In this document: positions 1-56,435 of the stretch, in pieces | Numbering within the stretch: position 1 is the first letter of the stretch | Layout of the letters: every line of letters starts with the position of its first letter | Assembly (NCBI GenBank): GCA_002781185.1 | Contig: PEUU01000020.1 | Location: 1-58,711, forward strand | Length of the DNA: 58,711 nt | From: Candidatus Jorgensenbacteria bacterium CG03_land_8_20_14_0_80_38_39 | Lineage (GTDB): Bacteria > Patescibacteriota > Minisyncoccia > UBA6257 > GWB1-50-10 | Direction: 5' to 3' | Notes under the pieces: model-generated | Databases searched by the model: none | Seen by the model: the letters and a program-made list of their open reading frames with translations, nothing else | What the model was told of the DNA's origin: nothing | Translations under genes and position numbers: made by a program

Positions 1-27
1 GCCCTCGCTTTCCGCCGCCGAATTTCG
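1..27. repeat. Left arm of inverted repeat bracketing the HTH-serpin cassette
   Basis: The sequence is gccctcgctttccgccgccgaatttcg. Its reverse complement recurs at 1723-1755 with one 3-nt and one 1-nt indel. The window edge hides anything further left. Confidence 0.7.
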
Positions 28-149
28 TATTTCGCCTTGCGAAATACGCCGCCAAAAAAAGTTTTGTTTGCCTAAATTCATTTTATTTGGTAGTATAAGA
101 ATACAGATAATAACCTTATATACTATAATACTACCAAAACTTTATTTAT

Positions 150-356
150 ATGACAAGTGGAAAAACAATCAGCGAAAATATCAAGAAAATGCGCGCCAAG
201 CTTGGCTTAACGCAAGATGATTTAGCCAAGAAAGCGGATATTAAATATACAACGCTTATGAAAGTCGAAAGTGGCACCGTTAATAAACCAAGCGTTCAAA
301 CTATGGATAGAATCGCCAAAGCGTTGTGCGTTTCAATTGAGGATTTGATAAAATAG
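150..356 (+). CDS. XRE/Cro-C1 family helix-turn-helix transcriptional regulator
   Basis: 68 aa. LGLTQDDLAKKADIKYTTLMKVESG is a classic HTH_3-type motif. A 10-bp inverted repeat ttggtagtat/atactaccaa (87-96, 128-137) and a tataat box lie upstream. Confidence 0.8.
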   Translation: MTSGKTISENIKKMRAKLGLTQDDLAKKADIKYTTLMKVESGTVNKPSVQTMDRIAKALCVSIEDLIK

Positions 357-418
357 TTTTGTATTGTGTTAAAATTAAAAGGTCAATTATAAATAATTTA
401 AAAATTAAATTAACTAAT

Positions 419-1690
419 ATGAATATAAACTGGAAAATTTTAACAGGTATTGCAATACTTTTGGCGATTGTGATTGTTGGCGGTATTTTTCTATTTCGTG
501 AAGGAACAATTTCTTTGCCGGAGCCAAAACCAAACCTCGCAGATATTAATAATGTTGTGGAGGCCAACAATCAATTTGCCTTGGATTACTATTCTAAATT
601 AAAAGACAAAGATGGGGACAACATTTTCTTTTCGCCATTTAGCATCTCTAGCGCCTTTGTAATGACATATGAAGGAGCAAAAGGACAAACAGCCGAAGAA
701 ATACGGTCAGTGTTTTATTTCCCAGAAAGTAGTAATTTAAGACGAACAGAGTACACAACGATTTTTGATGAAATAAATAAGGGAGATAAAAAATACAAAC
801 TTAGCAGTGCTAATGCTCTTTGGGCTCAAGAGGATTACCAATTTTTAAAGGACTATTTTGACAGTGTAGAGAAATACTATGGAGGAAAAGCCACAAATCT
901 TGATTTCAAAAAAGACCCAGAAGGGTCGCGAGTAACGATAAATAACTGGGTGGAAAACCAAACAAATGACAAAATCAAAGACCTAATCCCTTCAGGAATA
1001 ATAAAAACAATGACCAAATTAGTGTTGACAAATGCCATTTACTTCAAAGGAGAGTGGGTCAAGCAATTTAGTAAAAATGACACGAAGGAAGAAAATTTCA
1101 GAACAAATAAGAACGGGACTGTTAAAACTCAAATGATGCAGCGTACAGACGATGAAGCTATTTTCAATTATGCTGAAAACAGTAATCTTCAAATTCTTGA
1201 AACGCCGTATTCTGGAGAAGAACTGTCTATATTACTTCTGCTTCCCAAGGGCGATAATTTAGAAAAATTAGAAAGTTTACTTAGCACCAAAAAATTGTCA
1301 GAGTGGAGAAAAGATTTAGAAGAACAGAGAGTTAAGGTATTTATTCCTAAATTCAAATTTGAAACTAAATATTTCATGGCTGACGACCTTAAAGCGATGG
1401 GTATGCCGATTGCTTTTTCTGACTCAGCAGATTTTTCTGGAATGACCGGAAAAAGAGATTTAAAGATTAATGAGGCAATCCATCAAGCTTTCGTTGAAGT
1501 AAATGAAGAAGGGACAGAAGCAGCCGCGGCCACTGCCGTTGTTATGAGGCCGGTAGGAGGCGCTGCCGGTCCCCAAAAAGAACCCAAAATACCAGTATTT
1601 CGAGCTGATCATCCCTTTATATTTTTGATTCAGCAAAAAAACACCGGAAATATTTTATTTATAGGCAGAGTTGTTAATCCGAATTTATAG
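419..1690 (+). CDS. Serpin (serine protease inhibitor) with N-terminal membrane anchor/signal
   Basis: The ORF track gives 359-1690. The ATG at 419 precedes the hydrophobic segment ILTGIAILLAIVIVGGIF. The serpin hinge EEGTEAAAATAVV and the C-terminal FRADHPFIFLI signature are present. The reactive-centre loop is about 7 aa longer than in alpha-1-antitrypsin. Confidence 0.9.
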   Translation: MNINWKILTGIAILLAIVIVGGIFLFREGTISLPEPKPNLADINNVVEANNQFALDYYSKLKDKDGDNIFFSPFSISSAFVMTYEGAKGQTAEEIRSVFYFPESSNLRRTEYTTIFDEINKGDKKYKLSSANALWAQEDYQFLKDYFDSVEKYYGGKATNLDFKKDPEGSRVTINNWVENQTNDKIKDLIPSGIIKTMTKLVLTNAIYFKGEWVKQFSKNDTKEENFRTNKNGTVKTQMMQRTDDEAIFNYAENSNLQILETPYSGEELSILLLLPKGDNLEKLESLLSTKKLSEWRKDLEEQRVKVFIPKFKFETKYFMADDLKAMGMPIAFSDSADFSGMTGKRDLKINEAIHQAFVEVNEEGTEAAAATAVVMRPVGGAAGPQKEPKIPVFRADHPFIFLIQQKNTGNILFIGRVVNPNL

Positions 1691-1722
1691 AACTTAAAGG
1701 CGGCGCGCCAGTTTCACTGGCA

Positions 1723-1755
1723 CGAAATTCGGCGGCGGCGGAAAGCGAGGACGGG
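1723..1755. repeat. Right arm of inverted repeat bracketing the HTH-serpin cassette
   Basis: cgaaattcggcggcggcggaaagcgaggacgggc is the reverse complement of bases 1-27 with small indels. GC-rich hairpins follow it (ggcgcgc-gaa-gcgcgcc at about 1867-1883; gggcccc...ggggccc at 1753-1849). Confidence 0.7.
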
Positions 1756-2115
1756 CCCCGAAGGAGAAACTTCGTTTCCCTACGGGGTAAACAAAAATTC
1801 TTGCTTTTTGCTTGCCCCGTAGTAAGCCGAAGGCTTTACTATGGGGCCCGCCCGAGCGTTCAGTTTGGCGCGCGAAGCGCGCCGTCAGTTCCGTTCAAAA
1901 AAGGTTCGGATTTCGTCAAACAAACGCACTAAAGAAAATTTGGTGTATTTATATTCCTCCACTCGAACTTACTTTATAGGTCCGGATTTGGTCAAATAAA
2001 TGCACAAGCTTGAATTAACACCTCGGCCTCGCCGGCATTTCCTCGCCTCTCACTTGCTCTTGGTAGAGACGCGAATTTTTTTGGTTTAAATGATTTTCTA
2101 TTAGTTTAAATATTT

Positions 2116-2176
2116 ATTGAAGTTCAACTTCCATAGTTGGTTTATGGAAAAATTATTATGGAAGTTGAACTTCAAT
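2116..2176. repeat. Hairpin with perfect 20-bp arms
   Basis: attgaagttcaacttccata (2116-2135) pairs with tatggaagttgaacttcaat (2157-2176) across a 21-nt loop. Confidence 0.85.
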
Positions 2177-2202
2177 AGAATTTCAGTGAAAATCAAATGT
2201 CT

Positions 2203-2230
2203 CAGATATCCCACATATGTGGGATATCTG
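2203..2230. repeat. Perfect 28-bp palindrome centred on ACATATGT
   Basis: The sequence cagatatcccacatatgtgggatatctg is self-complementary. Confidence 0.9.
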
Positions 2231-2270
2231 AAGACTCAAAAATTAGAAAGATATCCTTGAATTGAAATAA

Positions 2271-2312
2271 TGAACTAGCTTTTATCAGCGATAGCAAATA
2301 AAAGCTAGTTCA
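2271..2312. repeat. Hairpin with 15-bp perfect arms
   Basis: tgaactagcttttat pairs with ataaaagctagttca across a 12-nt loop. Confidence 0.8.
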
Positions 2313-2500
2313 AATTTAAAGATTGAAAAAAGAAAAACAAAAAACCGATATCAGGGGGTAAAAAAAACAGAAAATCCATATCAGAGGATAAAATAAAAAA
2401 GAAAATAAAAAACCGATTCTTGACTTTTTGATTTTGGTTGTTTAGATTAAAAACGTTCGTTGAAAAATTATCCGAAACCAAAAATTGAAAGGGACACAAG

Positions 2501-2803
2501 ATGAGAACGAAAACGGAGGGTTTTGAAGTTATCCCTGGTCTAACAACCTGGGCCAACAATTTTTTAAAAGAAGCCACACCAAAAGGGGTGTATAGCTTCT
2601 ATCTCGGGGACCATTTTTTTAATGTCCCCTTAAAAGAGTGGACCCTTCCTGAGTTTGGGGAAGTGGTCCGAGAACAAGTTCAGGCTGAGATAGATATTAA
2701 CCATCTCGGTCCAGCTCTTTTCATCGCCTTACGCGATAAGAATGGCTGGATTGAAGAGAGCAGATGGTCTCAATCTTTAATTGAGGTCTATCAATCAATT
2801 TAA
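2501..2803 (+). CDS. Hypothetical protein
   Basis: 100-aa ORF with normal amino-acid composition. A plausible sigma70 promoter (ttgact-17-tagatt) lies about 70 nt upstream. I recognise no family. Confidence 0.4.
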   Translation: MRTKTEGFEVIPGLTTWANNFLKEATPKGVYSFYLGDHFFNVPLKEWTLPEFGEVVREQVQAEIDINHLGPALFIALRDKNGWIEESRWSQSLIEVYQSI

Positions 2804-2822
2804 TATATTGAAGCCGTTAAAA

Positions 2823-3368
2823 CTAAAGAGCGGCTTCTTTTTTATTTATTTTAACCAAAATTGAAGAAAGCAGAAATTTTATTAAGAAAAAAGAAAGGAG
2901 AGCTATTAAAAAACCTCCTAAAATATCCGAAAGCCAGTGAACGCCGGTAAATATCCTGGCTAAGCCGTTTAGAAAAGCCAAAATAAAAAACCAAATTCCC
3001 CAACGCCGGTTAAAGTAAAACAAAACAAGGGCAAGGGCAAACAAGAAAGCCGCGTGACCGGACGGAAAAGAAGCGCCGGATTCAGGAATTAAAGAAGTAA
3101 TTCCCAAAAGCTCAAACGGCCGAGGCCGATAATAAAAAAACCTAATAACTTCCGTTAAAATTCCCCGGGAGAGAATAAGGCAAAGGCCGGAAAAAATAAA
3201 AACCAGCCATTTTTCCTTCCAGGGTTTCTGCTTAAAAATAAAAACGAGGACGGCAAGAACCAAAAAAATAGGAAGATATTTGGCTAAAAAAACAGCCAAA
3301 GCGTTAATCAAGGAAGAAAAACCGCTGAGACTAAAAATAAATCTGAAAATAGAAATATCCAAAGACAT
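2823..3368 (-). CDS. PAP2-family (phosphatidic acid / undecaprenyl-diphosphate) phosphatase
   Basis: Polytopic membrane protein with PAP2 motifs PSGHAAF and GVHWLSDILGG. The ORF track start at 3461 would overlap rpsR, so the internal ATG at 3368 (MSLDISIF) is preferred. Confidence 0.75.
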   Translation of the reverse strand: MSLDISIFRFIFSLSGFSSLINALAVFLAKYLPIFLVLAVLVFIFKQKPWKEKWLVFIFSGLCLILSRGILTEVIRFFYYRPRPFELLGITSLIPESGASFPSGHAAFLFALALVLFYFNRRWGIWFFILAFLNGLARIFTGVHWLSDILGGFLIALLSFFLIKFLLSSILVKINKKEAAL

Positions 3369-15287: not shown

Positions 15288-15326
15288 TGTCTTCAATTCT
15301 TCCACATATGTGAAGAAACTGAAGAC
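15288..15326. repeat. Imperfect palindrome centred on ACATATGT
   Basis: gtcttcaattcttccacatatgtgaagaaactgaagac lies in the tpiA / galT-like spacer. It has the same core as 2203-2230. Confidence 0.7.
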
Positions 15327-15346
15327 ATTTGAATTGGTTAATTAGG

Positions 15347-28100: not shown

Positions 28101-28262
28101 TAGAGCAAAGCGAATTAAAAACTTTTTTGTTGTCCCAATAATCGTGCCTCGCTAATGTTCAGCACGATTTCGACAATAAATTTAATTAATCCACGCACAG
28201 CTTCCGCTACGCGTGCCTTGTTACGACTTCACCCATGTCACCGAGCTTACCCTAACCCAGCT

Positions 28263-28396
28263 TTTTGTTCTCAAGAACAAAAAGCGGCGCTGACTTACGT
28301 TGACTAAACGCTGACCCACGCAGAATTTCTTCCGCGTCGGTCTGCGTAATGTCTGCGTTCTTCCGCGAGCTTTTTGCGCTTCAGCGCAAAAAGCTG
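28263..28396 (-). other. 16S insertion 1, tip of helix 44 (about 134 nt, no ORF)
   Basis: It is flanked by cccagc/gctggg. Two terminal mini-hairpins (ctttttgttc-tcaa-gaacaaaaag and ctttttgcgc-ttca-gcgcaaaaag) enclose an imperfect hairpin of acgc/gcgt-rich units. Confidence 0.75.
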
Positions 28397-28764
28397 GGCT
28401 TTAGGTACTCCCGGCTCCCTTGGTGTGACGGGCAGTGAGTACAGGACTCGAGAACGTATTCACCGCGGCGTGCTGATCCGCGATTACTAGCGATTCCGGC
28501 TTCATGAGGGCGAGTTGCAGCCCTCAATTCGAACTGAGACCGAGTTTGATGGGATTAGCTCCGCCTTACGGCTTAGCAACCCATTGTCCCGGCCATTGTA
28601 ACATGAGTGTCGCCCAGGGCATCAAAGGGCCATGCTGATTTGACGTCGTCCTCACCTTCCTCCGTCTATACGACGGCAGTCTCTTCTGACACTTATAACA
28701 GAAGACAAGGGTTGCGCATGTTTCCCCATTGAAGGGAGCGCCTCACGGCACATGCTGACGGCCA

Positions 28765-29699
28765 TATTATTCCATTATTACTAATGGTATGGACTATACC
28801 ATCACCCTCTTCTTTTAAGAAAAAGAAGGGGGGACCGGCGTTTTATTCTTTATTTTACAAAAGAATAAAATCTCTAAGGTCTTTTTGAGATTAAGTCTCT
28901 ACGGGGTATGAATACTGATTTTTGTAATTTTAATGAATACGGAAAAATTAAGGAAAGAAATTTTTTAGTCTCTAATCTAGAAAAATACAAACAAAAAGTT
29001 TTAGCGCTATGATAATTATAGATTTTTATTCTCCGAAAACCTAACGATTGTATAAGTATTCTGTCTTGTTCTGCCTCCTCTTTATTGCTATAAACAATAC
29101 GACAATCGCTATAAAAATCTTTTGCCACAGAACCATCTCCATCAAATCTGCCTGCCATATAAGGCGAGATCAGTTTTCTGACAATAAAATTACTTAGATT
29201 ATTCTCTAATCCCTTAAATTCCCTCAACAAAGGACGACTATTTACATATAAATGATACGCTTTGGTGCGTCTTTTAAATTTATCTGGTCTGTAAATATAA
29301 AGTTTTAATCTTTTCTCGGGGAAAAATCTCAGAAAAAATTCACGAAATTTATCTATTAACAAAGTATTAGTATTACTTATACCAATACTACTTCCCCAAT
29401 AATAACCATCTGCGCACCACAAACCTAATATATAAGCATCGTCTTTTGTCTTAAAATTCCAAAAATCAGTATTCATACTTCCCACGGTATTACCCATCTG
29501 TTCGCTTCGCGAACACGCTGATTTACGCTGATTAATACGCTGATAAACGCTGATAAAAATTCCGCGTAAATCCGCGTCAGCGCCAAAGGCGCTAAAATCC
29601 GCGTTTATCCGTGTGTTTTACGAAGTAAAATGATTAGGGCTTCACCGTTATGAGCCAGTTTTTCATTCTAAATTTCTCTAGAATGGGTCGACATTTCAA
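28765..29699 (-). mobile_element. 16S insertion 2 (E. coli position about 1050), about 935 nt intron-like element with LAGLIDADG ORF
   Basis: The conserved ctgacggccat | … | catgcagcacctgt is split, and the boundary is ambiguous by the 4-nt ccat repeat. The insertion contains several hairpins and an acgctgat/atccgcgt repeat block at 29515-29613. Confidence 0.75.
28874..29497 (-). CDS. LAGLIDADG homing endonuclease (inside the 16S insertion)
   Basis: 207 aa with two LAGLIDADG-like motifs (ILGLWCADGYYWG and YMAGRFDGDGSV). It is on the same strand as the rRNA. Confidence 0.8.
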   Translation of the reverse strand: MGNTVGSMNTDFWNFKTKDDAYILGLWCADGYYWGSSIGISNTNTLLIDKFREFFLRFFPEKRLKLYIYRPDKFKRRTKAYHLYVNSRPLLREFKGLENNLSNFIVRKLISPYMAGRFDGDGSVAKDFYSDCRIVYSNKEEAEQDRILIQSLGFRRIKIYNYHSAKTFCLYFSRLETKKFLSLIFPYSLKLQKSVFIPRRDLISKRP

Positions 29700-29839
29700 C
29701 CATGCAGCACCTGTCCCGGCGTCCTTGAAAGAAAATTTTCCTTTCGGAAAATCGTCACCGGGATTTCAAGCCCTGGTAAGGTTCCTCGCTTACCATCGAA
29801 TTAAACCTCATGTTCCACCGCTTGTGCGAGTCCCCGTCT

Positions 29840-29871
<32 letters not shown>

Positions 29872-29967
29872 TCCCAGGCGGTCCACTTAATGCGTTAGCT
29901 ACGCCACTCCGAGGGTCGATACTCGAAACAGCTAGTGGACATCGTTTAGGGCGTGGACTACAAGGGT

Positions 29968-30337
29968 CAAGTTGTTACTTCGTAACAATCGCAGACTTAC
30001 GCTGACTTCACGCTGACTTACGCAGAAGTAAACGTAGACACGAGTTACGCGACACAGACATTTCTGCTGTGTTCTGTATATCGCTATACAGGTCGGACTA
30101 TATCTTCACCCGTTTAAATTTTACTTGTGTAAAATTTTGACGGGGTTTGGCGTGTAGTCTCTACGGAGTCCTGTTAGTCATAACAGGTTCCCTCGGTGTT
30201 TTCCATAAAATGGATTTTCACCGATATAGCCAAATTACACTTTAATATTGCTACTAAATGAGACACCATTGTTGCTTCGTGTCCGCGTCAGTCCGCGTTA
30301 AGTCCGCGTCTGTCTGCGGTTTCGCGAAGCGAAACGT
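29968..30337 (-). other. 16S insertion 3, within the 785-806 block (about 370 nt, no ORF)
   Basis: It splits ggactacaagggt | atctaatcc. The ends carry inverted GCGT-rich repeat arms (29989-30035 versus 30279-30320) and terminal mini-hairpins (gttgttac-ttc-gtaacaa and gtttcgc-gaa-gcgaaac). Confidence 0.75.
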
Positions 30338-30653
30338 ATCTAATCCTTTTTGCTCCCCACGCTTTCGCGCCTCAGGGTCAGGAACGTCCCAGCAGAATGC
30401 CTTCGCCTTTGGTGTTCCAGCCGATATCAACGGATTTCACCCCTACACCGGCTGTTCCATCTGCCTCTAACGCCCTCAATCCCGCTCATCTCTTCAGCGG
30501 CCTTAGGGTTAAGCCCTAAGATTTAACTGAAGATGCAGCGGGACCCCTACGCGCCCTTTACGCCCAATAAATCCGGATAACGCTTGGGGCCTTCGTATTA
30601 CCGCGGCTGCTGGCACGAAGTTTGCCACCCCTTATTCTATTCCTACTATCAAT

Positions 30654-30789
30654 CGTGTCTCGCTATCGCTCATCACCTTACGATTCCAAACTACGAATGC
30701 ATCCGAATCTACGAAAATAAATTTCAAATTTGTAGATTCGCATCAATTTGTAGTTTTGGATCGGTAGTGTCGAACAATAGTGAGACACG
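30654..30789 (-). other. 16S insertion 4, V3 region (about 136-nt hairpin)
   Basis: The outer stem is cgtgtctc…gagacacg. The inner arms are gattccaaactacgaatgcatccgaatctacgaa (30682-30715) and its imperfect complement (30729-30763). Confidence 0.7.
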
Positions 30790-31044
30790 ACTTTATCGGA
30801 ATAAAAAGCAGTTTACAACCCTAGGGCCTTCATCCTGCACGCGGCGTCGCTCGATCAGGCTTTCGCCCATTGTCGAATATTCTCGACTGCTGCCTCCCGT
30901 AGGAGTACGTTCCGTGTCTCAGTAACGTCGTTGGGGAATAGCCTCTCAGCTCCCCTACCCGTCGTCGCCTTGGTGGGCCATTACCTCACCAACAAGCTGA
31001 TAGGACCTAGGCCGCTCCCGAAGCGACTTGCGTCTTTACTGGTA

Positions 31045-31205
31045 ATTGGATTTTATTCGCAAGTCGCTTCAGAATTTCTAATTTCTAATTTTTAATTTCT
31101 AATAAATGATTTAATGACTTAATGTTTAAAAATTAAATCACTAAAAATTGATTGAAAATTTAAAATTGAAAATTGAAAATTGAAGAACTTGTAAACAAAA
31201 TCCAA
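31045..31205 (-). other. 16S insertion 5, helix 10 / V2 region (about 160 nt)
   Basis: The stem is ctggtaattggatttt / aaaatccaactaccag. The arms are heptamer arrays aatttct x4 and attgaaa x5. Confidence 0.65.
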
Positions 31206-31295
31206 CTACCAGACTATAGGATATTACCCAATCTTTCGACTGGCTATTTCCTACTTTGGGGTATGTACCAAGGTGTTACTAACTCGTTCGCCACT

Positions 31296-31730
31296 GTCAG
31301 ACATCAGACATTAGAAATCGGATTTCGGATTTTTTGAATTAATGAATTAATTTGTTTTGATTCCACTTTATATTCTTCGATTAATGCATCGCAATTTCCA
31401 CAATTTACATTGGAAAAGTTTAAAATTCTTATCTGCCACAAATGCGTAATTGTTTCATCTGAGGAACCAAGCGCCATATAAAGAAAACGTTTGAATTCGT
31501 TTTGCGAGTTCTTTTTTGCGAATCCCTCAGTAATCTGAGCGGAAATCGCTTTGGCTGAATTACAAACTTGAGATTTTAATTCAAATTCGTTTCGTGGCAA
31601 TTGATTTACCAGTTCATAAATTCTCGGCAATAAATCCATTGCCCTTTTATAAATTTGTAATTCCGTTACGTCTTTCATTAAATCCAATTATATCACCCGA
31701 AATCTGAACTCTGAAGTCTGATATCTGACC
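31296..31730 (-). mobile_element. 16S insertion 6, helix 6 / V1 (about 435 nt) carrying a four-helix-bundle ORF
   Basis: It splits cgttcgccact | cgttcgacttgcatg. Inverted arms gtcagacatcagacattagaaatcggatttcgg (31296-) and ccgaaatctgaactctgaagtctgatatctgac (-31730) can form a long stem around the ORF. Confidence 0.8.
31304..31687 (-). CDS. Four-helix-bundle protein of the 23S rRNA intervening-sequence protein family
   Basis: 127 aa. IYKRAMDLLPRIYELVNQLPRNEFELKSQVCNSAKAISAQITEGFAK…GSSDETITHL resembles the S23p / IVS four-helix-bundle family. It is paralogous to 43238-43621. Confidence 0.75.
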   Translation of the reverse strand: MDLMKDVTELQIYKRAMDLLPRIYELVNQLPRNEFELKSQVCNSAKAISAQITEGFAKKNSQNEFKRFLYMALGSSDETITHLWQIRILNFSNVNCGNCDALIEEYKVESKQINSLIQKIRNPISNV

Positions 31731-35542: not shown

Positions 35543-35576
35543 CCTCAAAACTGTAACATATGTTACAGTTTTGAGG
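35543..35576. repeat. Perfect 34-bp palindrome downstream of PaaX-like paralog A
   Basis: cctcaaaactgtaacatatgttacagttttgagg. Confidence 0.95.
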
Positions 35577-35645: not shown

Positions 35646-36152
35646 TTATTTAACATTAAAACGCCTTTTTAGCTCGTCAGCGCCCTCAATGATATCCACA
35701 ATCATCGGCAGGCAATATTTCTCTATTTTCTGTTCCACAATCCATTCCCAGACATCTGCGGCTAACTTCTGAGATCCTAACCATACGCTTTTCTGCAAGG
35801 GAATAAAATTGTATGCCCTCAATAACCTTGTAAGGGCGATTCTTTTGGAGTTAAAATTCACCGGAATATCAAAACTCAATATGTACCATTGCCCTTTTTC
35901 ATTAAATACTGGGACGGCCGGGTGATAACGACGAAACAGTTTTTTGCCGCTGGGGGTAAGGATAATCTTTTTTTGATGCGCCTGAAGAAAACCTCGTTCA
36001 ATGAGTCGTTTTAAACTTTGACGCAAATATTTTTTTCGTCTGTGACGCTCAATAAATTCCTCAACAAGAAACGTTCCCGCTTCACCAAGGTCAGAGAAAA
36101 ATTCGCTCCACTCGCGTATATGTCTTCGAGCATCTCGTGATGTTTTAGCCAT
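35646..36152 (-). CDS. PaaX-like protein: winged HTH + Cas2-like ferredoxin-fold domain (paralog A)
   Basis: The ATG at 36152 is preferred (the track start at 36170 is a TTG inside the palindrome). The wHTH segment is LKRLIERGFLQAHQKKIILTPSGKKLF. The Cas2/PaaX-central-like motif is WYILSFDIPVNFNSKRIALTRLLRAYNFIPLQKSVWLG. Confidence 0.6.
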   Translation of the reverse strand: MAKTSRDARRHIREWSEFFSDLGEAGTFLVEEFIERHRRKKYLRQSLKRLIERGFLQAHQKKIILTPSGKKLFRRYHPAVPVFNEKGQWYILSFDIPVNFNSKRIALTRLLRAYNFIPLQKSVWLGSQKLAADVWEWIVEQKIEKYCLPMIVDIIEGADELKRRFNVK

Positions 36153-36164
36153 AATAATTGCTAT

Positions 36165-36198
36165 CCTCAATATTGTATCATATGATACAAGATTGAGG
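36165..36198. promoter_or_regulatory. 34-bp palindrome (one mismatched pair) 13 nt upstream of paralog A; candidate operator
   Basis: cctcaatattgtatcatatgatacaagattgagg shares the frame CCTCAA-N3-TGTA-N-CATATG-N-TACA-N3-TTGAGG with 35543-35576. Confidence 0.6.
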
Positions 36199-36246
36199 AA
36201 ACAAAAAAATTATAAAAACCATGGAAGATTTGTTTAATTTGTTTAA

Positions 36247-43049: not shown

Positions 43050-43190
43050 AAAATTTTTGTCCCGATTTTGTATCCCGCATAGCGGGATTTACAAAATCGA
43101 GGATCCACGATTTCTTTAATCCCGATCGTGAAGCGATCGTGGATAGAAATCGGGAGATTAAGTTTTAAATCAGGATTCAACATAGGAATT

Positions 43191-43250
43191 AGTAGTTAGG
43201 AGTTAGTAGTTAGTAGTTAGTAGTTAGTAGTTAGAAATTAGGAGTTAGTT
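43191..43250. repeat. Heptamer array agtagtt/aggagtt x8; left arm of the four-helix-bundle cassette
   Basis: agtagttaggagttagtagttagtagttagtagttagtagttagaaattaggagtt is the inverse of the taggagttagt units at 43630-43673. Confidence 0.85.
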
Positions 43251-43621
43251 TGTGAAGCGGATCTCAGTACTTGCGACAATTTATTTAACATTCGCATAAT
43301 CTCATTAAGTAATGAAATGATAGAATCGTACTCACTTATTGATATATAGCTCAATTCCTTTGATAACTCTAATTGAGTTTCTAATTCTGCACCAGAGGCA
43401 AAAGCGATATTAATAAATTGAGAATATTCTTTTGCGTGTCTCCGTAAATATCCTTCGGCAACATTGGAAGGAATCCCCACCGCCGCTCGTCTCATCTGAC
43501 TTACCAAACCATATGTCTCTGATTTGGGAAAATTTTTCGTTAACTTATAAACTTCTAAAACTAATTTCATAGATTTTTTCCAAACAATTAATTCTCTAAA
43601 TGATTTTGTTTTTGAATTCAT
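43238..43621 (-). CDS. Four-helix-bundle protein of the 23S rRNA intervening-sequence protein family
   Basis: 127 aa. FRELIVWKKSMKLVLEVYKLTKNFPKSETYGLVSQMRRAAVGIPSNVAEGY…GAELETQLELS is a classic pattern of this family. Confidence 0.85.
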   Translation of the reverse strand: MNSKTKSFRELIVWKKSMKLVLEVYKLTKNFPKSETYGLVSQMRRAAVGIPSNVAEGYLRRHAKEYSQFINIAFASGAELETQLELSKELSYISISEYDSIISLLNEIMRMLNKLSQVLRSASQTNS

Positions 43622-43629
43622 ATTTCTCG

Positions 43630-43673
43630 CTCCTAAATACTAACTCCTAGATACTAACTCCTAAACACTAAAT
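43630..43673. repeat. 14-bp units aactcctaNatact x3; right arm of the four-helix-bundle cassette
   Basis: ctcctaaatactaactcctagatactaactcctaaacacta. Confidence 0.85.
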
Positions 43674-44655: not shown

Positions 44656-44694
44656 GTTCTAAAACTTGGTTCTAAAACTTGGTTTTAAAACATT
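44656..44694. repeat. 13-bp direct repeat x2.5
   Basis: gttctaaaacttg gttctaaaacttg gttttaaaacatt. Confidence 0.8.
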
Positions 44695-44700
44695 CTTTAT

Positions 44701-44738
44701 TGTCACATTTAATACGCCATGGCATAATAGAGGTGACA
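44701..44738. promoter_or_regulatory. Imperfect 38-bp palindrome ending 1 nt before the paralog B start codon; candidate operator
   Basis: tgtcac-atttaatac-gccatggc-ataatagag-gtgaca. Confidence 0.55.
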
Positions 44739-44739
44739 A

Positions 44740-45354
44740 ATGCGAAATAATGACAATAAGAAAATGATACAAAGAGTTGATATCCGTAATATCCGGAAGA
44801 ACTCAAGAGCTTACAAGATTCTAAAATACCTTGCTCTCGGTTCTGGATTCATTATCCTCTCTACCATCTCGCCCTATGGTGGCGCTAGAGTGGTGAAAAG
44901 CCTTATTCAGAATTATCTTAGACGGAAGCGTTTTGAAAAATACCGATTCTTAACTGATTTAAAAAATTTACAAAAAAGAGATTTAATTGATTATCAAGAT
45001 CTCGGAAATGGCAATGTTAAGATAATTATCACCGCTCGGGGAAAACAAAAAGTTCTTCTCAACAATATTGATGAGATAAAACTAAAGAAACAAAAACGAT
45101 GGGATGGTAAATGGAGATTGATAATATTTGATATTCCTCATAGCCGCAAAGGAGCGCGCGACGCCTTCCGAAAAATATTGAAAAATTTGGGCTTCTATCC
45201 CCTTCAGAAAAGTGTTTTCATCACGCCTTATCCCTGTGAAAATGAAATAGATTTTATTGCCTCAATCTTTGACATCCGCCAAAATGTGCTCCTGCTCTAC
45301 GTAAACAATTTTGAAGGCGAAGAAAAACTAAAATATCACTTCAAAATTAAATAA
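44740..45354 (+). CDS. PaaX-like protein: winged HTH + Cas2-like domain (paralog B)
   Basis: 204 aa with an N-terminal hydrophobic segment. The wHTH segment is LKNLQKRDLIDYQDLGNGNVKIIITARGKQKV. The Cas2/PaaX-like motif is WDGKWRLIIFDIPHSRKGARDAFRKILKNLGFYPLQKSVFITPYP. Confidence 0.65.
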   Translation: MRNNDNKKMIQRVDIRNIRKNSRAYKILKYLALGSGFIILSTISPYGGARVVKSLIQNYLRRKRFEKYRFLTDLKNLQKRDLIDYQDLGNGNVKIIITARGKQKVLLNNIDEIKLKKQKRWDGKWRLIIFDIPHSRKGARDAFRKILKNLGFYPLQKSVFITPYPCENEIDFIASIFDIRQNVLLLYVNNFEGEEKLKYHFKIK

Positions 45355-45358
45355 ACTC

Positions 45359-45400
45359 TAGAATGTCACCGTTAGAATGTCACCGTTAGAATGTCACCGT
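45359..45400. repeat. 14-bp direct repeat x3, each carrying a TGTCAC half-site
   Basis: tagaatgtcaccgt occurs three times, starting 5 nt after the paralog B stop. Confidence 0.9.
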
Positions 45401-45426
45401 TATTAAGCCATGGCTTAATAACGGTG
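45395..45426. repeat. Perfect 32-bp palindrome downstream of paralog B
   Basis: caccgttattaagccatggcttaataacggtg has the same TGTCAC-N9-GCCATGGC frame as 44701-44738. Confidence 0.95.
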
Positions 45427-45558
45427 TAGTCAAAATATTTTACTTAAATATTTATTTAAATATTTTATCTACAAATATTTTATCTACAAATATTTTATCT
45501 GATATTTATATATTTATATTTAATATTTATCTGATATTTATCTAAATCCAATAAACTC

Positions 45559-45588
45559 TTGACAAATTAGAAAGAAATATGCTATACT
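45559..45588 (+). promoter_or_regulatory. Near-consensus sigma70 promoter
   Basis: TTGACA-18 nt-TATACT. AT-rich tandem repeats (aatattttatctaca x3) precede it at 45440-45545. Confidence 0.65.
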
Positions 45589-45686
45589 CCAAGCAGAAAG
45601 TGAAAGTTTCGCCTTGCCTAGCCAAGGTGTTTGAAAATCCGACTTCTGATGCTAGGTAGAGGAAGTCAAAATAAGGAGACACAACA

Positions 45687-45860
45687 ATGAAAGCACTGAA
45701 ACTCTTCTTCCTGCTGGTGGCCATGGCATCGATGGTAGGAATGGCGTTCAATGTTGTTGGCGGGACAGAAGGAGAAAATCCTAATCTTCTGTTTTGGCTA
45801 GTTGTCTTTGTCGTAGCATTGCTCTGCACAATGCTAACGACAAAAAAGCCGGTGAAGTAA
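45687..45860 (+). CDS. Small hydrophobic protein (57 aa, two TM segments)
   Basis: Hand-translated as MKALKLFFLLVAMASMVGMAFNVVGGTEGENPNLLFWLVVFVVALLCTMLTTKKPVK. AAGGAG lies 8 nt upstream. It has a structured leader of about 95 nt and its own terminator. Confidence 0.55.
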   Translation: MKALKLFFLLVAMASMVGMAFNVVGGTEGENPNLLFWLVVFVVALLCTMLTTKKPVK

Positions 45861-45890
45861 AGTAGTAATAGACCGGCAAAAATGTAAAAA

Positions 45891-45922
45891 GGGTCTTCCC
45901 AAGGAAGACCCTGTATTTTTTT
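45891..45922 (+). terminator. Intrinsic terminator
   Basis: gggtcttcc-caa-ggaagaccc is followed by tgtattttttt. Confidence 0.8.
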
Positions 45923-48983: not shown

Positions 48984-49213
48984 AATTTATATTAAAAAAT
49001 AATTATTTTAGCGAGGCCGACTTCGTCTGCTGGAAAGCGACTACGTCGTCCGAAGGCTGACTTGCCCCGTCTTAAGTTCCGCAGAAATTTTAGCGCAAGG
49101 TTTTTCAAAAATAGCCTTCTCAAGATATTTTTATTATAACAAAATTATTACAACAAATCCAGCAATTTCTCCGTCTTTAAATCCAGCAATCTTATTACAA
49201 CAAATCCGGCAAT

Positions 49214-49353
49214 TCTTTCATCTTCTTTTATCTGCGGATATACAGTTTTGTCTGCGGATAGACAAATAACTTTAGTCAACAAATCTTTCATCTTCTTTTA
49301 TCTGCGGATATACAGTTTTGTCTGCGGATAGACAAATAACTTTAGTCAACAAA
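49214..49353. repeat. Perfect 70-bp tandem duplication
   Basis: The unit is tctttcatcttcttttatctgcggatatacagttttgtctgcggatagacaaataactttagtcaacaaa. Each copy ends with the left part of the C-type palindrome. Confidence 0.9.
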
Positions 49354-49380
49354 CTCACGATCGTGAGTTTGTTGACTAAA
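49341..49380. repeat. Perfect 40-bp palindrome (C-type), downstream of the giant gene
   Basis: tttagtcaacaaactcacgatcgtgagtttgttgactaaa is identical to 55468-55507. Confidence 0.95.
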
Positions 49381-55467: not shown

Positions 55468-55507
55468 TTTAGTCAACAAACTCACGATCGTGAGTTTGTT
55501 GACTAAA
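55468..55507. repeat. Perfect 40-bp palindrome (C-type), downstream of paralog C
   Basis: tttagtcaacaaactcacgatcgtgagtttgttgactaaa. Confidence 0.95.
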
Positions 55508-55602: not shown

Positions 55603-56190
55603 TTAAAGATTTAATTTCTTTAATGTTCCCGTTTGAGTAATTTTAAAGATATGTACAGAATCAATTAAATCTAATTCTGCTAAAGCGTTTAAAAACTCTT
55701 CTGGCAATTTATTTCTGCCAATCCAGACGCTTTTCTGAAGCATTGTAAACCCCAAAGCCAATAAAGTAGATCTCAGCCAATCTCGTTTTGCTCTGTGTTT
55801 TTCAGGAATGTCAAAAACAATGAGATTTATATCATTGTCTTTTTCGTGTCTAACATTAAATAGAGGAAAGTGAAAGGTAATTTTAATTTTTTCTAATTTT
55901 TCCCTACCTAAAGATGTAATCGTCCACCATGTTTTGTTTCCCTTTTGCTTCTTTTCTACAAAGCCCTGCCTTTTTAACCTTGAAAGCAAACTATAAAATT
56001 TATGTTTTTCTTTTTGTAATAATTTAGGATTGATTCTTGTTGTGTCCGTTTTAGAGAAATCGGGGAGCGTCGGATAAAATACCCTCCTTTTCATTTTTTT
56101 GTAATCATAACCGCTAAGAAATATATTAAGGAGAGATTCAGTTATCCGTCCAGTCTTTTTTAAAATTTCCAAAATTAATTGAGTTTTCAT
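55603..56190 (-). CDS. PaaX-like protein: winged HTH + Cas2-like domain (paralog C)
   Basis: 195 aa. The wHTH segment is LSRLKRQGFVEKKQKGNKTWWTITSLGREKL. The Cas2/PaaX-like motif is INLIVFDIPEKHRAKRDWLRSTLLALGFTMLQKSVWIG. Confidence 0.65.
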   Translation of the reverse strand: MKTQLILEILKKTGRITESLLNIFLSGYDYKKMKRRVFYPTLPDFSKTDTTRINPKLLQKEKHKFYSLLSRLKRQGFVEKKQKGNKTWWTITSLGREKLEKIKITFHFPLFNVRHEKDNDINLIVFDIPEKHRAKRDWLRSTLLALGFTMLQKSVWIGRNKLPEEFLNALAELDLIDSVHIFKITQTGTLKKLNL

Positions 56191-56236
56191 AATTAGTATT
56201 TATTTAATCTTATTTTAATCCTATTTTATTCTTAAA

Positions 56237-56278
56237 TTTTAGTCAACAAACTCACGATCGTGAGTTTGTTGAGTAAAA
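56237..56278. promoter_or_regulatory. 42-bp palindrome (one mismatched pair), C-type, upstream of paralog C; candidate operator
   Basis: ttttagtcaacaaactcacgatcgtgagtttgttgagtaaaa. Confidence 0.6.
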
Positions 56279-56435
56279 TGGAAAGCAACGGAAGCCGAAG
56301 AATTAGTAAATAATAAAATATAAAACTGAGGCAGAGTTAGTAAATAATAAAATAGTGGAAAGTGACGAAATTCGGATTAATAAAATAGTAAAAAGCGACA
56401 AAATTCGAATCAATAAAATCCTAAGTAATAAAATA
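56279..56435. repeat. Degenerate tandem array of about 33 bp period (4-5 units), each ending aataaaat(a)
   Basis: aataaaata occurs at 56312, 56347, 56379, 56412 and 56427. Units 3 and 4 (gtggaaagtgacgaaattcggattaataaaata / gtaaaaagcgacaaaattcgaatcaataaaat) are about 70% identical. Confidence 0.7.

Follow-up and report, generated by a model that had tools for sequence, protein, structure and literature searches.

What is the function of a protein that public databases name for CRISPR in a stretch of DNA that holds no CRISPR array, and why is its gene bracketed by two copies of the same long palindrome? The gene in question, paralog B (hereafter B), lies in 58.7 kb of DNA from Candidatus Jorgensenbacteria, an uncultured groundwater bacterium; this whole stretch is referred to as the window. 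Gene regulation in members of the candidate phyla radiation (CPR), bacteria that cannot be grown alone, is almost unexplored, and the locus offers a testable pairing of protein and site for a very large family, three members of which lie in the window. Our favored reading, to which we assign a probability of roughly 0.6, is that B is a miniature PaaX that lacks the ligand domain and would bind both palindromes, repressing its own promoter, with the downstream copy serving for looping or as a boundary. We infer from sequence that B is the binder, and likewise the sign of the regulation and the role of the downstream copy. If such binding occurs, the family would constitute a natural library of orthogonal repressors with long operators, and regulons could be read directly from CPR genomes. 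In a literature search that was incomplete, no paper was found in which these lineages, or palindromes of this kind, are connected with PaaX or Cas2-like winged-helix proteins. The gene and its two flanking sites are the following:

44740-45354, plus strand: paralog B gene, 204 residues, winged helix at the N-terminus and Cas2-like PaaX_M domain at the C-terminus (open reading frame, Pfam, AlphaFold, Foldseek).
44701-44738, no strand: upstream site TGTCAC-N9-GCCATGGC-N9-GTGACA, proposed operator of the encoded protein.
45392-45429, no strand: downstream site TGTCAC-N9-GCCATGGC-N9-GTGTAG, proposed second operator.

The upstream site (tgtcac-atttaatac-gccatggc-ataatagag-gtgaca) is an imperfect palindrome that ends at 44738, one nucleotide short of the ATG at 44740, just as the initial annotation had described. 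It is identical across all ten contigs of a strain set that encode an identical B protein (23 contigs were read), as is the entire 203-bp region upstream of B. The downstream site follows the stop codon and contains a perfect 32-bp palindromic core, CACCGTTATTAAGCCATGGCTTAATAACGGTG, at 45395-45426; its right outer half-site is degenerate (GTGTAG), its frame is that of the upstream site, and the two sites are identical at 28 of 35 positions. A search of the window for TGTCAC-N9-GCCATGGC with at most two mismatches returned three half-matches, all at B's two sites, as compared to 0.03 expected, and none of 100 shuffled sequences reached three. These two flanking copies are the only B-type sites in the window and in the ten strain contigs. 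Recurrence of the palindrome at many unrelated loci, which had been named beforehand as a finding that would speak against a private operator, was checked in a metagenome-wide scan for TGTCAC-N9-GCCATGGC-N-TAATA; the scan gave only three unrelated matches, in coding sequence and at chance level, and a dispersed repeat family was rejected on this basis.

Two paralogs of B, A and C, were located in the window by tblastn. Both also match Pfam PaaX_M, and each of the three genes carries its own matched palindrome on both flanks, with sequences that differ among the paralogs:

35646-36170, minus strand: paralog A gene (tblastn).
36164-36199, no strand: upstream palindrome of A, TCCTCAATATTGTATCATATGATACAAGATTGAGGA, with an TCATATGA core (palindrome scan).
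35543-35576, no strand: downstream palindrome of A, CCTCAAAACTGTAACATATGTTACAGTTTTGAGG (palindrome scan).
55603-56190, minus strand: paralog C gene (tblastn).
56236-56279, no strand: upstream palindrome of C, a one-mismatch copy of the downstream one (palindrome scan).
55468-55507, no strand: downstream palindrome of C, the 40-bp TTTAGTCAACAAACTCACGATCGTGAGTTTGTTGACTAAA (palindrome scan).
49341-49380, no strand: third, identical copy of the C palindrome, after a pair of genes encoding 202 and 1774 residues (palindrome scan).
2195-2235, 15288-15327 and L099 18670-18709, no strand: A-type extra sites, TCTTCA-N8-ACATATGT-N8-TGAAGA, intergenic.

A scan of the window that required full palindromy of the 8-bp core and complementarity at 10 or more of 13 arm positions gave eight sites, as compared to none in 30 Markov shuffles. 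Three palindromes frame C and the two genes that follow it, one before C, one between C and the pair and the third, 6 kb away, after the pair. The outer half-site and core of A, TC[C/T]TCA-N8-ACATATGT, occur at three further places (0.01 expected), one of them 26 nt upstream of tpiA (15288-15327) and another between relA and groES, just past the window edge (L099 18670-18709); the inner 8 nt of these three sites vary from site to site and are self-complementary within each. Judged by their sequence and placement, the A- and C-type extra sites look like small regulons, which favors a DNA-binding regulator over a mobile element. Behind the third C copy, 2.1 repeats of a 70-bp unit are found (49210-49380, between the 1774-residue gene and gap); the unit begins with the right half-site of the C palindrome (TTTGTTGACTAAAG). 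Separately, an orphan 42-bp palindrome, TGAACTAGCTTTTATCAGCGATAGCAAATAAAAGCTAGTTCA, with a family-type GCGATAGC core is located at 2271-2312; it is the sole copy in the window and lies near no PaaX-like gene.

To see how far this arrangement extends, we turned to relatives of B. With an E-value limit of 1e-3, a search of a library of 50%-identity clusters returned 3,477 cluster representatives, and a scan of one genome per species gave at least 573 confirmed relatives, with nearly all of the best 80 titled Patescibacteria or CPR. At the 74 loci among these 80 that have enough flanking sequence, the 300 bp before the start codon were compared with the 300 bp after the stop codon, and the best ungapped match was recorded; as a control, the upstream region of one locus was paired with the downstream region of another. 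Cognate flanks gave a median score of 21.5 versus 10 for non-cognate flanks (control maximum 14.5), and 82% of the loci lie above the control maximum and 90% above its 99th percentile. The matched segments are palindromes of 30-46 bp, with 0-60 nt between the upstream copy and the start codon and 0-100 nt between the stop codon and the downstream copy, and in the B orthologues at 65% and 56% identity palindromes centered on GyCATGrC are present on both sides. The earlier proposal that both palindromes are candidate cognate sites of B is therefore backed by gene-specific pairs at A, at C and at most of the 74 relatives. This self-bracketing layout, shared by most of the relatives sampled, points to what may be an undescribed class of regulators. 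At four loci (L057, L063, L075 and L087) the upstream and downstream palindromes have a common core and different arms, each copy being perfect or near-perfect and that of L057 extending up to 64 bp; adjacent paralogs were rejected as the source of the mismatched arms, as no second family gene is found within 1.5 kb of these four loci and a second member lies within that distance at only 2 of 80 loci.

The full site spans ~42 bp and comprises an 8-bp palindromic core, a loose zone at offsets 5-7 and arms that reach offset 20-21. ACGATCGT and GCGATCGC are the commonest cores, followed by GCCATGGC, GCTATAGC and GCTATCGC. Along the site, self-complementarity and the identity between upstream and downstream copies each show a dip at offsets 5-7 and a return to background at +/-22; the dip together with the sharp edges is a contact-like pattern. 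The core evolves slowly and its type tracks protein similarity (0.459 vs 0.397 identity, permutation p 0.0005), whereas the arms evolve fast and yet are matched within a locus, where identity among the four half-sites is 0.67 as compared to about 0.31 between loci. The family follows an unusual rule, in which a regulator gene sits between two private palindromes whose arms undergo fast concerted change around a slow core.

The position of the upstream copy relative to the start of B is consistent with a role in transcription, as two expression signals overlap it:

44700-44728, plus strand: promoter-like TTGTCA-17 nt-CATAAT with a TG before the -10 box, inside the upstream palindrome (consensus scan, 10/12 matches).
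44730-44736, plus strand: Shine-Dalgarno-like GAGGTGA in the right palindrome arm (read from sequence).

From this promoter, transcription of B is predicted to start near 44735-44736, leaving a leader of ~4 nt; the orthologue L015 has the same CATAAT, 11 nt from its ATG. A promoter-like match is present in 39 of 57 upstream sites in the family; in 22 of these 39 its -10 box begins at +12 to +36 relative to the palindrome center, and in 12 it ends 6-12 nt from the ATG. This indicates that the upstream palindrome usually covers the -35 box and the spacer, a placement that repression by occlusion would predict, and that leaders are short or absent.

The encoded protein is related to PaaX in domain and fold. 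Pfam PaaX_M (PF20803) matches residues 119-194 of B (E 1.8e-21, 76 bits vs a cut-off of 24), and among PDB structures Foldseek ranks E. coli PaaX first (8a39, 196 columns, E 7.5e-5), then the PaaX-like structure 3l09 and then Cas2 structures, which cover the C-terminal half only. In the AlphaFold model residues 23-97 form a helix-strand-helix-helix-wing arrangement, and this winged helix gives weak profile matches to those of ArsR, MarR and AspA. The Pfam model of the PaaX N-terminal domain has no match in B, nor does PaaX_C, with ~70 residues from the start of the Cas2-like domain to the end of the protein, and the NCBIfam PaaX equivalog TIGR02277 scores 29.4 bits vs a cut-off of 264.55. The label 'PaaX-like' given by the initial annotation is thus appropriate for domain and fold, as the PaaX_M and 8a39 matches indicate, and fails as a statement of orthology, as TIGR02277 remains far under its cut-off. 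In NCBI and UniRef, B and C are named 'CRISPR-associated endonuclease Cas2' (e.g. PIR07291.1 and PIR06247.1, Candidatus Jorgensenbacteria). This name is explained by the fact that B just passes TIGR01573 (cas2; 28.0 bits vs a cut-off of 24.5) in an alignment limited to 37 residues (125-161). The 58.7-kb window contains no CRISPR array (no repeat array exceeds nine units), for which reason a CRISPR association of B was rejected, and cas1 is absent among the Pfam-listed neighbors of B. B is therefore neither a PaaX orthologue nor a CRISPR Cas2. The Cas2 naming of B and C in a window without an array is probably a case of systematic mis-annotation in CPR genomes, and our assignment corrects a widespread 'Cas2' annotation in lineages mostly without CRISPR. 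Nor are paa genes found near B, its neighbors being two transketolase halves, a 23S-IVP protein, rpe, rpiB and gap.

In the favored reading, the Cas2-like domain of B would mediate dimerization and the winged helix would recognize DNA. A B dimer would occupy a two-fold symmetric site of ~38-42 bp, placing its two winged helices on the outer half-sites TGTCAC and GTGACA, about 32 bp apart center to center, and the 8-bp core GCCATGGC on the dyad of the bound site. As the upstream site covers B's own -35 box, spacer and -10 box, its occupancy would exclude RNA polymerase and result in negative autoregulation. The second site, after the stop codon, would also be bound by B, either looping to the upstream site or acting as a roadblock or boundary at the 3' end. 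A related arrangement has been described for E. coli PaaX, which recognizes the operator TGATTC(N27)GAATCA and represses Px, the promoter of its own gene, by impeding RNA polymerase (PMC9493321). As in B, the PaaX protein of E. coli W has a winged helix followed by a Cas2-like dimerization domain, its 6-bp inverted half-sites are widely spaced to give about 38-39 bp overall (N27, as compared to TGTCAC-N26-GTGACA for B), and the position of B's upstream site agrees with the promoter occlusion published for PaaX autorepression. B differs from PaaX in its length (204 vs 305-316 residues), in the absence of the phenylacetyl-CoA-responsive C-terminal domain and of nearby paa genes, in its low TIGR02277 score, in having a second cognate site directly past the stop codon, and in the many paralogs per genome. 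It also differs from Cas2: apart from the short TIGR01573 alignment and the Foldseek matches of its C-terminal half, B is a 204-residue winged-helix fusion, whereas Cas2 is a stand-alone protein of about 90-100 residues encoded beside cas1 and an array; PaaX_M fits B far better, and the window contains three paralogs, each with palindromes.

Two other systems resemble the layout rather than the protein. The operators OL and OR of lambda CI lie on both sides of the repressor gene and cooperate by DNA looping; as at B, a repressor gene is placed between two cognate operator sets, one of which overlies its own promoter. In contrast to CI, B has an unrelated fold and a single long site per side, the two being about 650 bp apart, and there is no evidence that it oligomerizes beyond a dimer. 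Genes flanked by cognate palindromes are also known from the REP/RAYT 'REPtrons' and the ends of IS200/IS605 elements, which share with B the placement of one gene between two gene-specific palindromes and a protein with a ferredoxin-like fold. However, no HUH-Tyr transposase domain or HUH/Tyr motif was found in B, and its palindromes are not dispersed, with two copies in 58.7 kb.

Several observations weigh against the favored reading. The conserved 8-bp palindromic core on the dyad has not been described for PaaX operators. The predicted leader of 4 nt bypasses a good Shine-Dalgarno sequence, GAGGTGA, which would be usable only if transcription started further upstream, and the promoter assignment may for this reason be wrong. 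Arm similarity and protein similarity are nearly uncorrelated (Mantel r 0.06, p 0.08) and proteins 73-75% identical can carry unrelated arms; covariation of protein and arm was rejected as too weak, and a coupling of specificity is thus not demonstrated. The physiological logic of a ligand-less regulator that mainly brackets its own gene is not obvious. Finally, we tabulated the positions at which the four half-sites of a locus split two-and-two (n=132), and mirrored differences, in which the change is matched within a copy, are over-represented (58/132, p 0.007); of the remainder, 50 are shared between copies in direct and 24 in inverted orientation. The mirrored excess fits selection for self-complementarity or mutational homogenization, and the excess of direct over inverted sharing is compatible with a shared ancestry of the two copies, or with a role that depends on orientation. 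These patterns of half-site change are the least explained part of the data, and they keep alive the structural and cassette explanations considered below.

A more novel reading, which we consider rather unlikely, has two forms. In the first, the proteins publicly named Cas2 would be a large set of orthogonal miniature PaaX proteins lacking the ligand domain, known to date from the CPR only, each of which would mark its gene's two ends and a few further intergenic sites with a private palindrome of ~42 bp around a common core. Jointly these protein-bound elements would operate as a genome-wide boundary or operator system, with B-type proteins perhaps tethered to the membrane. In the second form, a Cas2-derived system would carry out site-specific DNA processing at the conserved core. 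The notion of a tether arises from the hydrophobic stretch YLALGSGFIILSTISPYGG near the N-terminus of B. As the initial annotation had noted, this stretch sets B apart from A and C, with maximum 19-residue Kyte-Doolittle means of 1.43, 0.71 and 1.06 for B, A and C, respectively; it is not unusual, however, being the norm in B's subfamily, where 36 of 48 aligned members reach a 19-residue mean of at least 1.6 in the N-terminal stretch and some exceed 2.5. The AlphaFold model, whose confidence is low here (predicted local distance difference test, pLDDT, 47-67), assigns the segment to strand 1 and the end of helix 1 in the winged helix, and a profile alignment to ArsR also positions it on the first winged-helix helices. 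In B-type proteins it may thus be a buried element or a membrane anchor.

It is also conceivable, if doubtful, that the downstream palindrome is chiefly an operator for the gene of a small membrane protein that follows B on the same strand, a role that would be compatible with autorepression by B. The relevant features are:

45687-45860, plus strand: gene of a 57-residue hydrophobic (membrane) protein, on the same strand as B (open reading frame).
45559-45588, plus strand: the small gene's own promoter, TTGACA-18 nt-TATACT (consensus scan).
45433-45545, no strand: AT-rich tandem repeats, the 15-bp AAATATTTTATCTAC and others, with strain-variable copy number.
45890-45912, no strand: bidirectional intrinsic terminator of canonical type, separating the small gene from rpe (terminator scan).

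In favor of such an operator, the downstream copy of C lies just upstream of the TTGAAA...TATAAT promoter of the next two genes. Expression of the small gene also appears to be evolving: its -10 box reads TATACT or GATACT depending on the strain (45575-45690 vs L001-L010) and the spacing of its GGAGA to the ATG varies among strains (ACACAACAATG or ACACAAATG), differences which suggest, at the level of sequence, that the amount of the 57-residue protein varies as well. However, its promoter is strong and lies 133 bp past the palindrome, beyond the strain-variable AT-rich repeats, in which the copy number of the 15-bp unit differs among the ten contigs. Moreover, the neighbor downstream of the family gene is co-directional at 35 of 70 loci and convergent at the other 35, and the downstream copy is therefore not generally an operator of the next gene. 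A third copy of GCCATGGCAT, which had been reported inside the small gene, is indeed present, 11 nt away from the position given (45720-45729, not 45731-45740), and has no palindromic arms. Taken together, the distant promoter and the armless copy weaken the earlier suggestion that the small gene is co-regulated through the downstream palindrome. A riboswitch or leader RNA of the small gene was rejected, with no Rfam match even at E up to 1 and a fold z of -0.97. A 1.1-kb insertion in L001 (4160-5260, corresponding to about 45921 in the window), also seen in L005 and L006, carries a second small-gene promoter and leader that drives an MJ1673-family gene and a gene of 132 residues, followed by a second 57-residue gene; the leader motif cttctgatgctaggta, common to the insertion and the small gene, neither matches Rfam nor folds significantly.

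We consider it unlikely that the palindromes act as nucleic acid structures instead of B sites, either as RNA hairpins at both transcript ends, where they would terminate or stabilize the RNA or be processed, or as DNA cruciforms; the apex would be conserved and the stems could change freely. This explanation accounts for arms that are free to vary between loci and still remain self-complementary, for the over-representation of mirrored double changes, for the L039, L052 and L067 copies, which differ upstream and downstream and are each perfect palindromes, and for the inner 8 nt of the A-type orphan sites, which differ and are self-complementary within each. Many arms have the AAA(A)...(T)TTT ends seen in bidirectional terminators, convergent genes surround half of the downstream copies, and B's downstream site could fold as RNA into a 14-bp hairpin of about -20 kcal/mol (z -3.8). 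Hairpins leave unexplained, however, why arms are shared within a locus, and complementarity dips at offsets 5-7, next to the would-be loop, where a stem needs pairing most. Most upstream copies are located upstream of the -10 box or span it, so that the gene's own promoter would not transcribe them. Although the genome uses canonical terminators, no U-tract adjoins the palindromes of B, A or C (after 45426 the sequence is TAGTCAAAATATTTT), and the terminator scan called 45890-45912 only and none of these palindromes; an intrinsic terminator at B's downstream palindrome was rejected on this ground. It is established that template-switch correction of quasi-palindromes can yield mirrored changes without selection.

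The least probable of the explanations we weighed, very unlikely in our estimate, is that the gene and its palindromes are a cassette bounded by recombination or integration sites, either a duplicated long target, as with the CRISPR repeat that is copied around a new spacer, or loxP-like sites, with the Cas2-like protein taking part in rearrangement. The core sites of recombinases such as loxP and FRT have a 13-8-13 plan of arm, core and arm, which the 34-42 bp layout of arm, 8-bp core and arm resembles, and B retains the conserved Asp (FDIP) and the QKSVF motif of the Cas2-like domain. Evolution of the two copies is concerted, with arms that diverge fast between relatives; direct sharing of asymmetries outnumbers inverted sharing; genomic context is not conserved among B relatives; and solo palindromes exist. 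Against a cassette, the Pfam list of B's neighbors contains no integrase or recombinase, and no Cas1; the paralogs within one genome, only 23-32% identical, do not look recently copied; the B cassette is neither missing nor inverted in any of the ten strain contigs, though neighboring repeats vary; repetition and symmetry extend over exactly the same segment, within which identity dips, a pattern unexpected for a duplication; and the extra sites share only the outer half-site and core, as operators do. A phage origin was likewise rejected, as no relatives are present in IMG/VR viral contigs.

The short repeats near B were also re-examined:

45359-45402, no strand: 14-bp tandem repeat TAGAATGTCACCGT, with the TGTCAC outer half-site in each copy (Tandem Repeats Finder, TRF).
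44656-44691, no strand: 13-bp tandem repeat GTTCTAAAACTTG, 2.8 copies, upstream of the promoter (TRF).

The three tandem 14-bp units that the initial annotation described as running into the perfect 32-bp palindrome in the same frame are all present as exact copies (TRF 3.1 copies, 100% match). As a feature of note, the triple half-site repeat did not hold up: eight of the ten near-identical strain contigs have two units and only two have three, as in the window. Across the family, extra half-sites are not enriched (a count of 4.84 vs 4 plus a background of 0.73), and auxiliary half-site repeats were rejected as a family trait. Because the copy number varies by strain and there is no family-wide enrichment, the triple repeat is best seen as a slippage polymorphism beside the downstream site. 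The 13-bp repeat was found in 2.8 copies rather than the 2.5 given earlier; it is invariant in the ten strains and not kept in the orthologues L011 and L012. Short tandem repeats are common in intergenic DNA throughout the window.

Further observations concern the surroundings of these loci. A conserved link between B and pentose-phosphate genes was rejected, being seen in L012 only and in none of L015-L094. A replication origin at 45433-45545, where a DnaA-box-like TTATCTACA occurs, was rejected as there is no GC-skew sign change near 45 kb. Such a change is found near 3 kb (window 1-3000; L098 13700-20462), and just past the left end of the window are HTH_XRE, Mu Gam-like and LAGLIDADG-like genes together with parA, parB and relA; the left end may thus be close to the replication origin or terminus. 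Strain L099 is without the serpin and helix-turn-helix (HTH) genes. The 23S-rRNA-IVP-family gene (43238-43621) sits between the two transketolase halves, with tandem repeats on either side (8.7 copies of TTAGTAG and three of a 14-bp unit, at 43189-43249 and 43630-43671). The small-subunit rRNA gene (28181-31331) is 3.15 kb long and contains a group I intron (30074-30283) and further insertions, and gene calling in L098 (2566-9387) joins the beta and beta' subunits of RNA polymerase in a single fused gene of 2273 residues.

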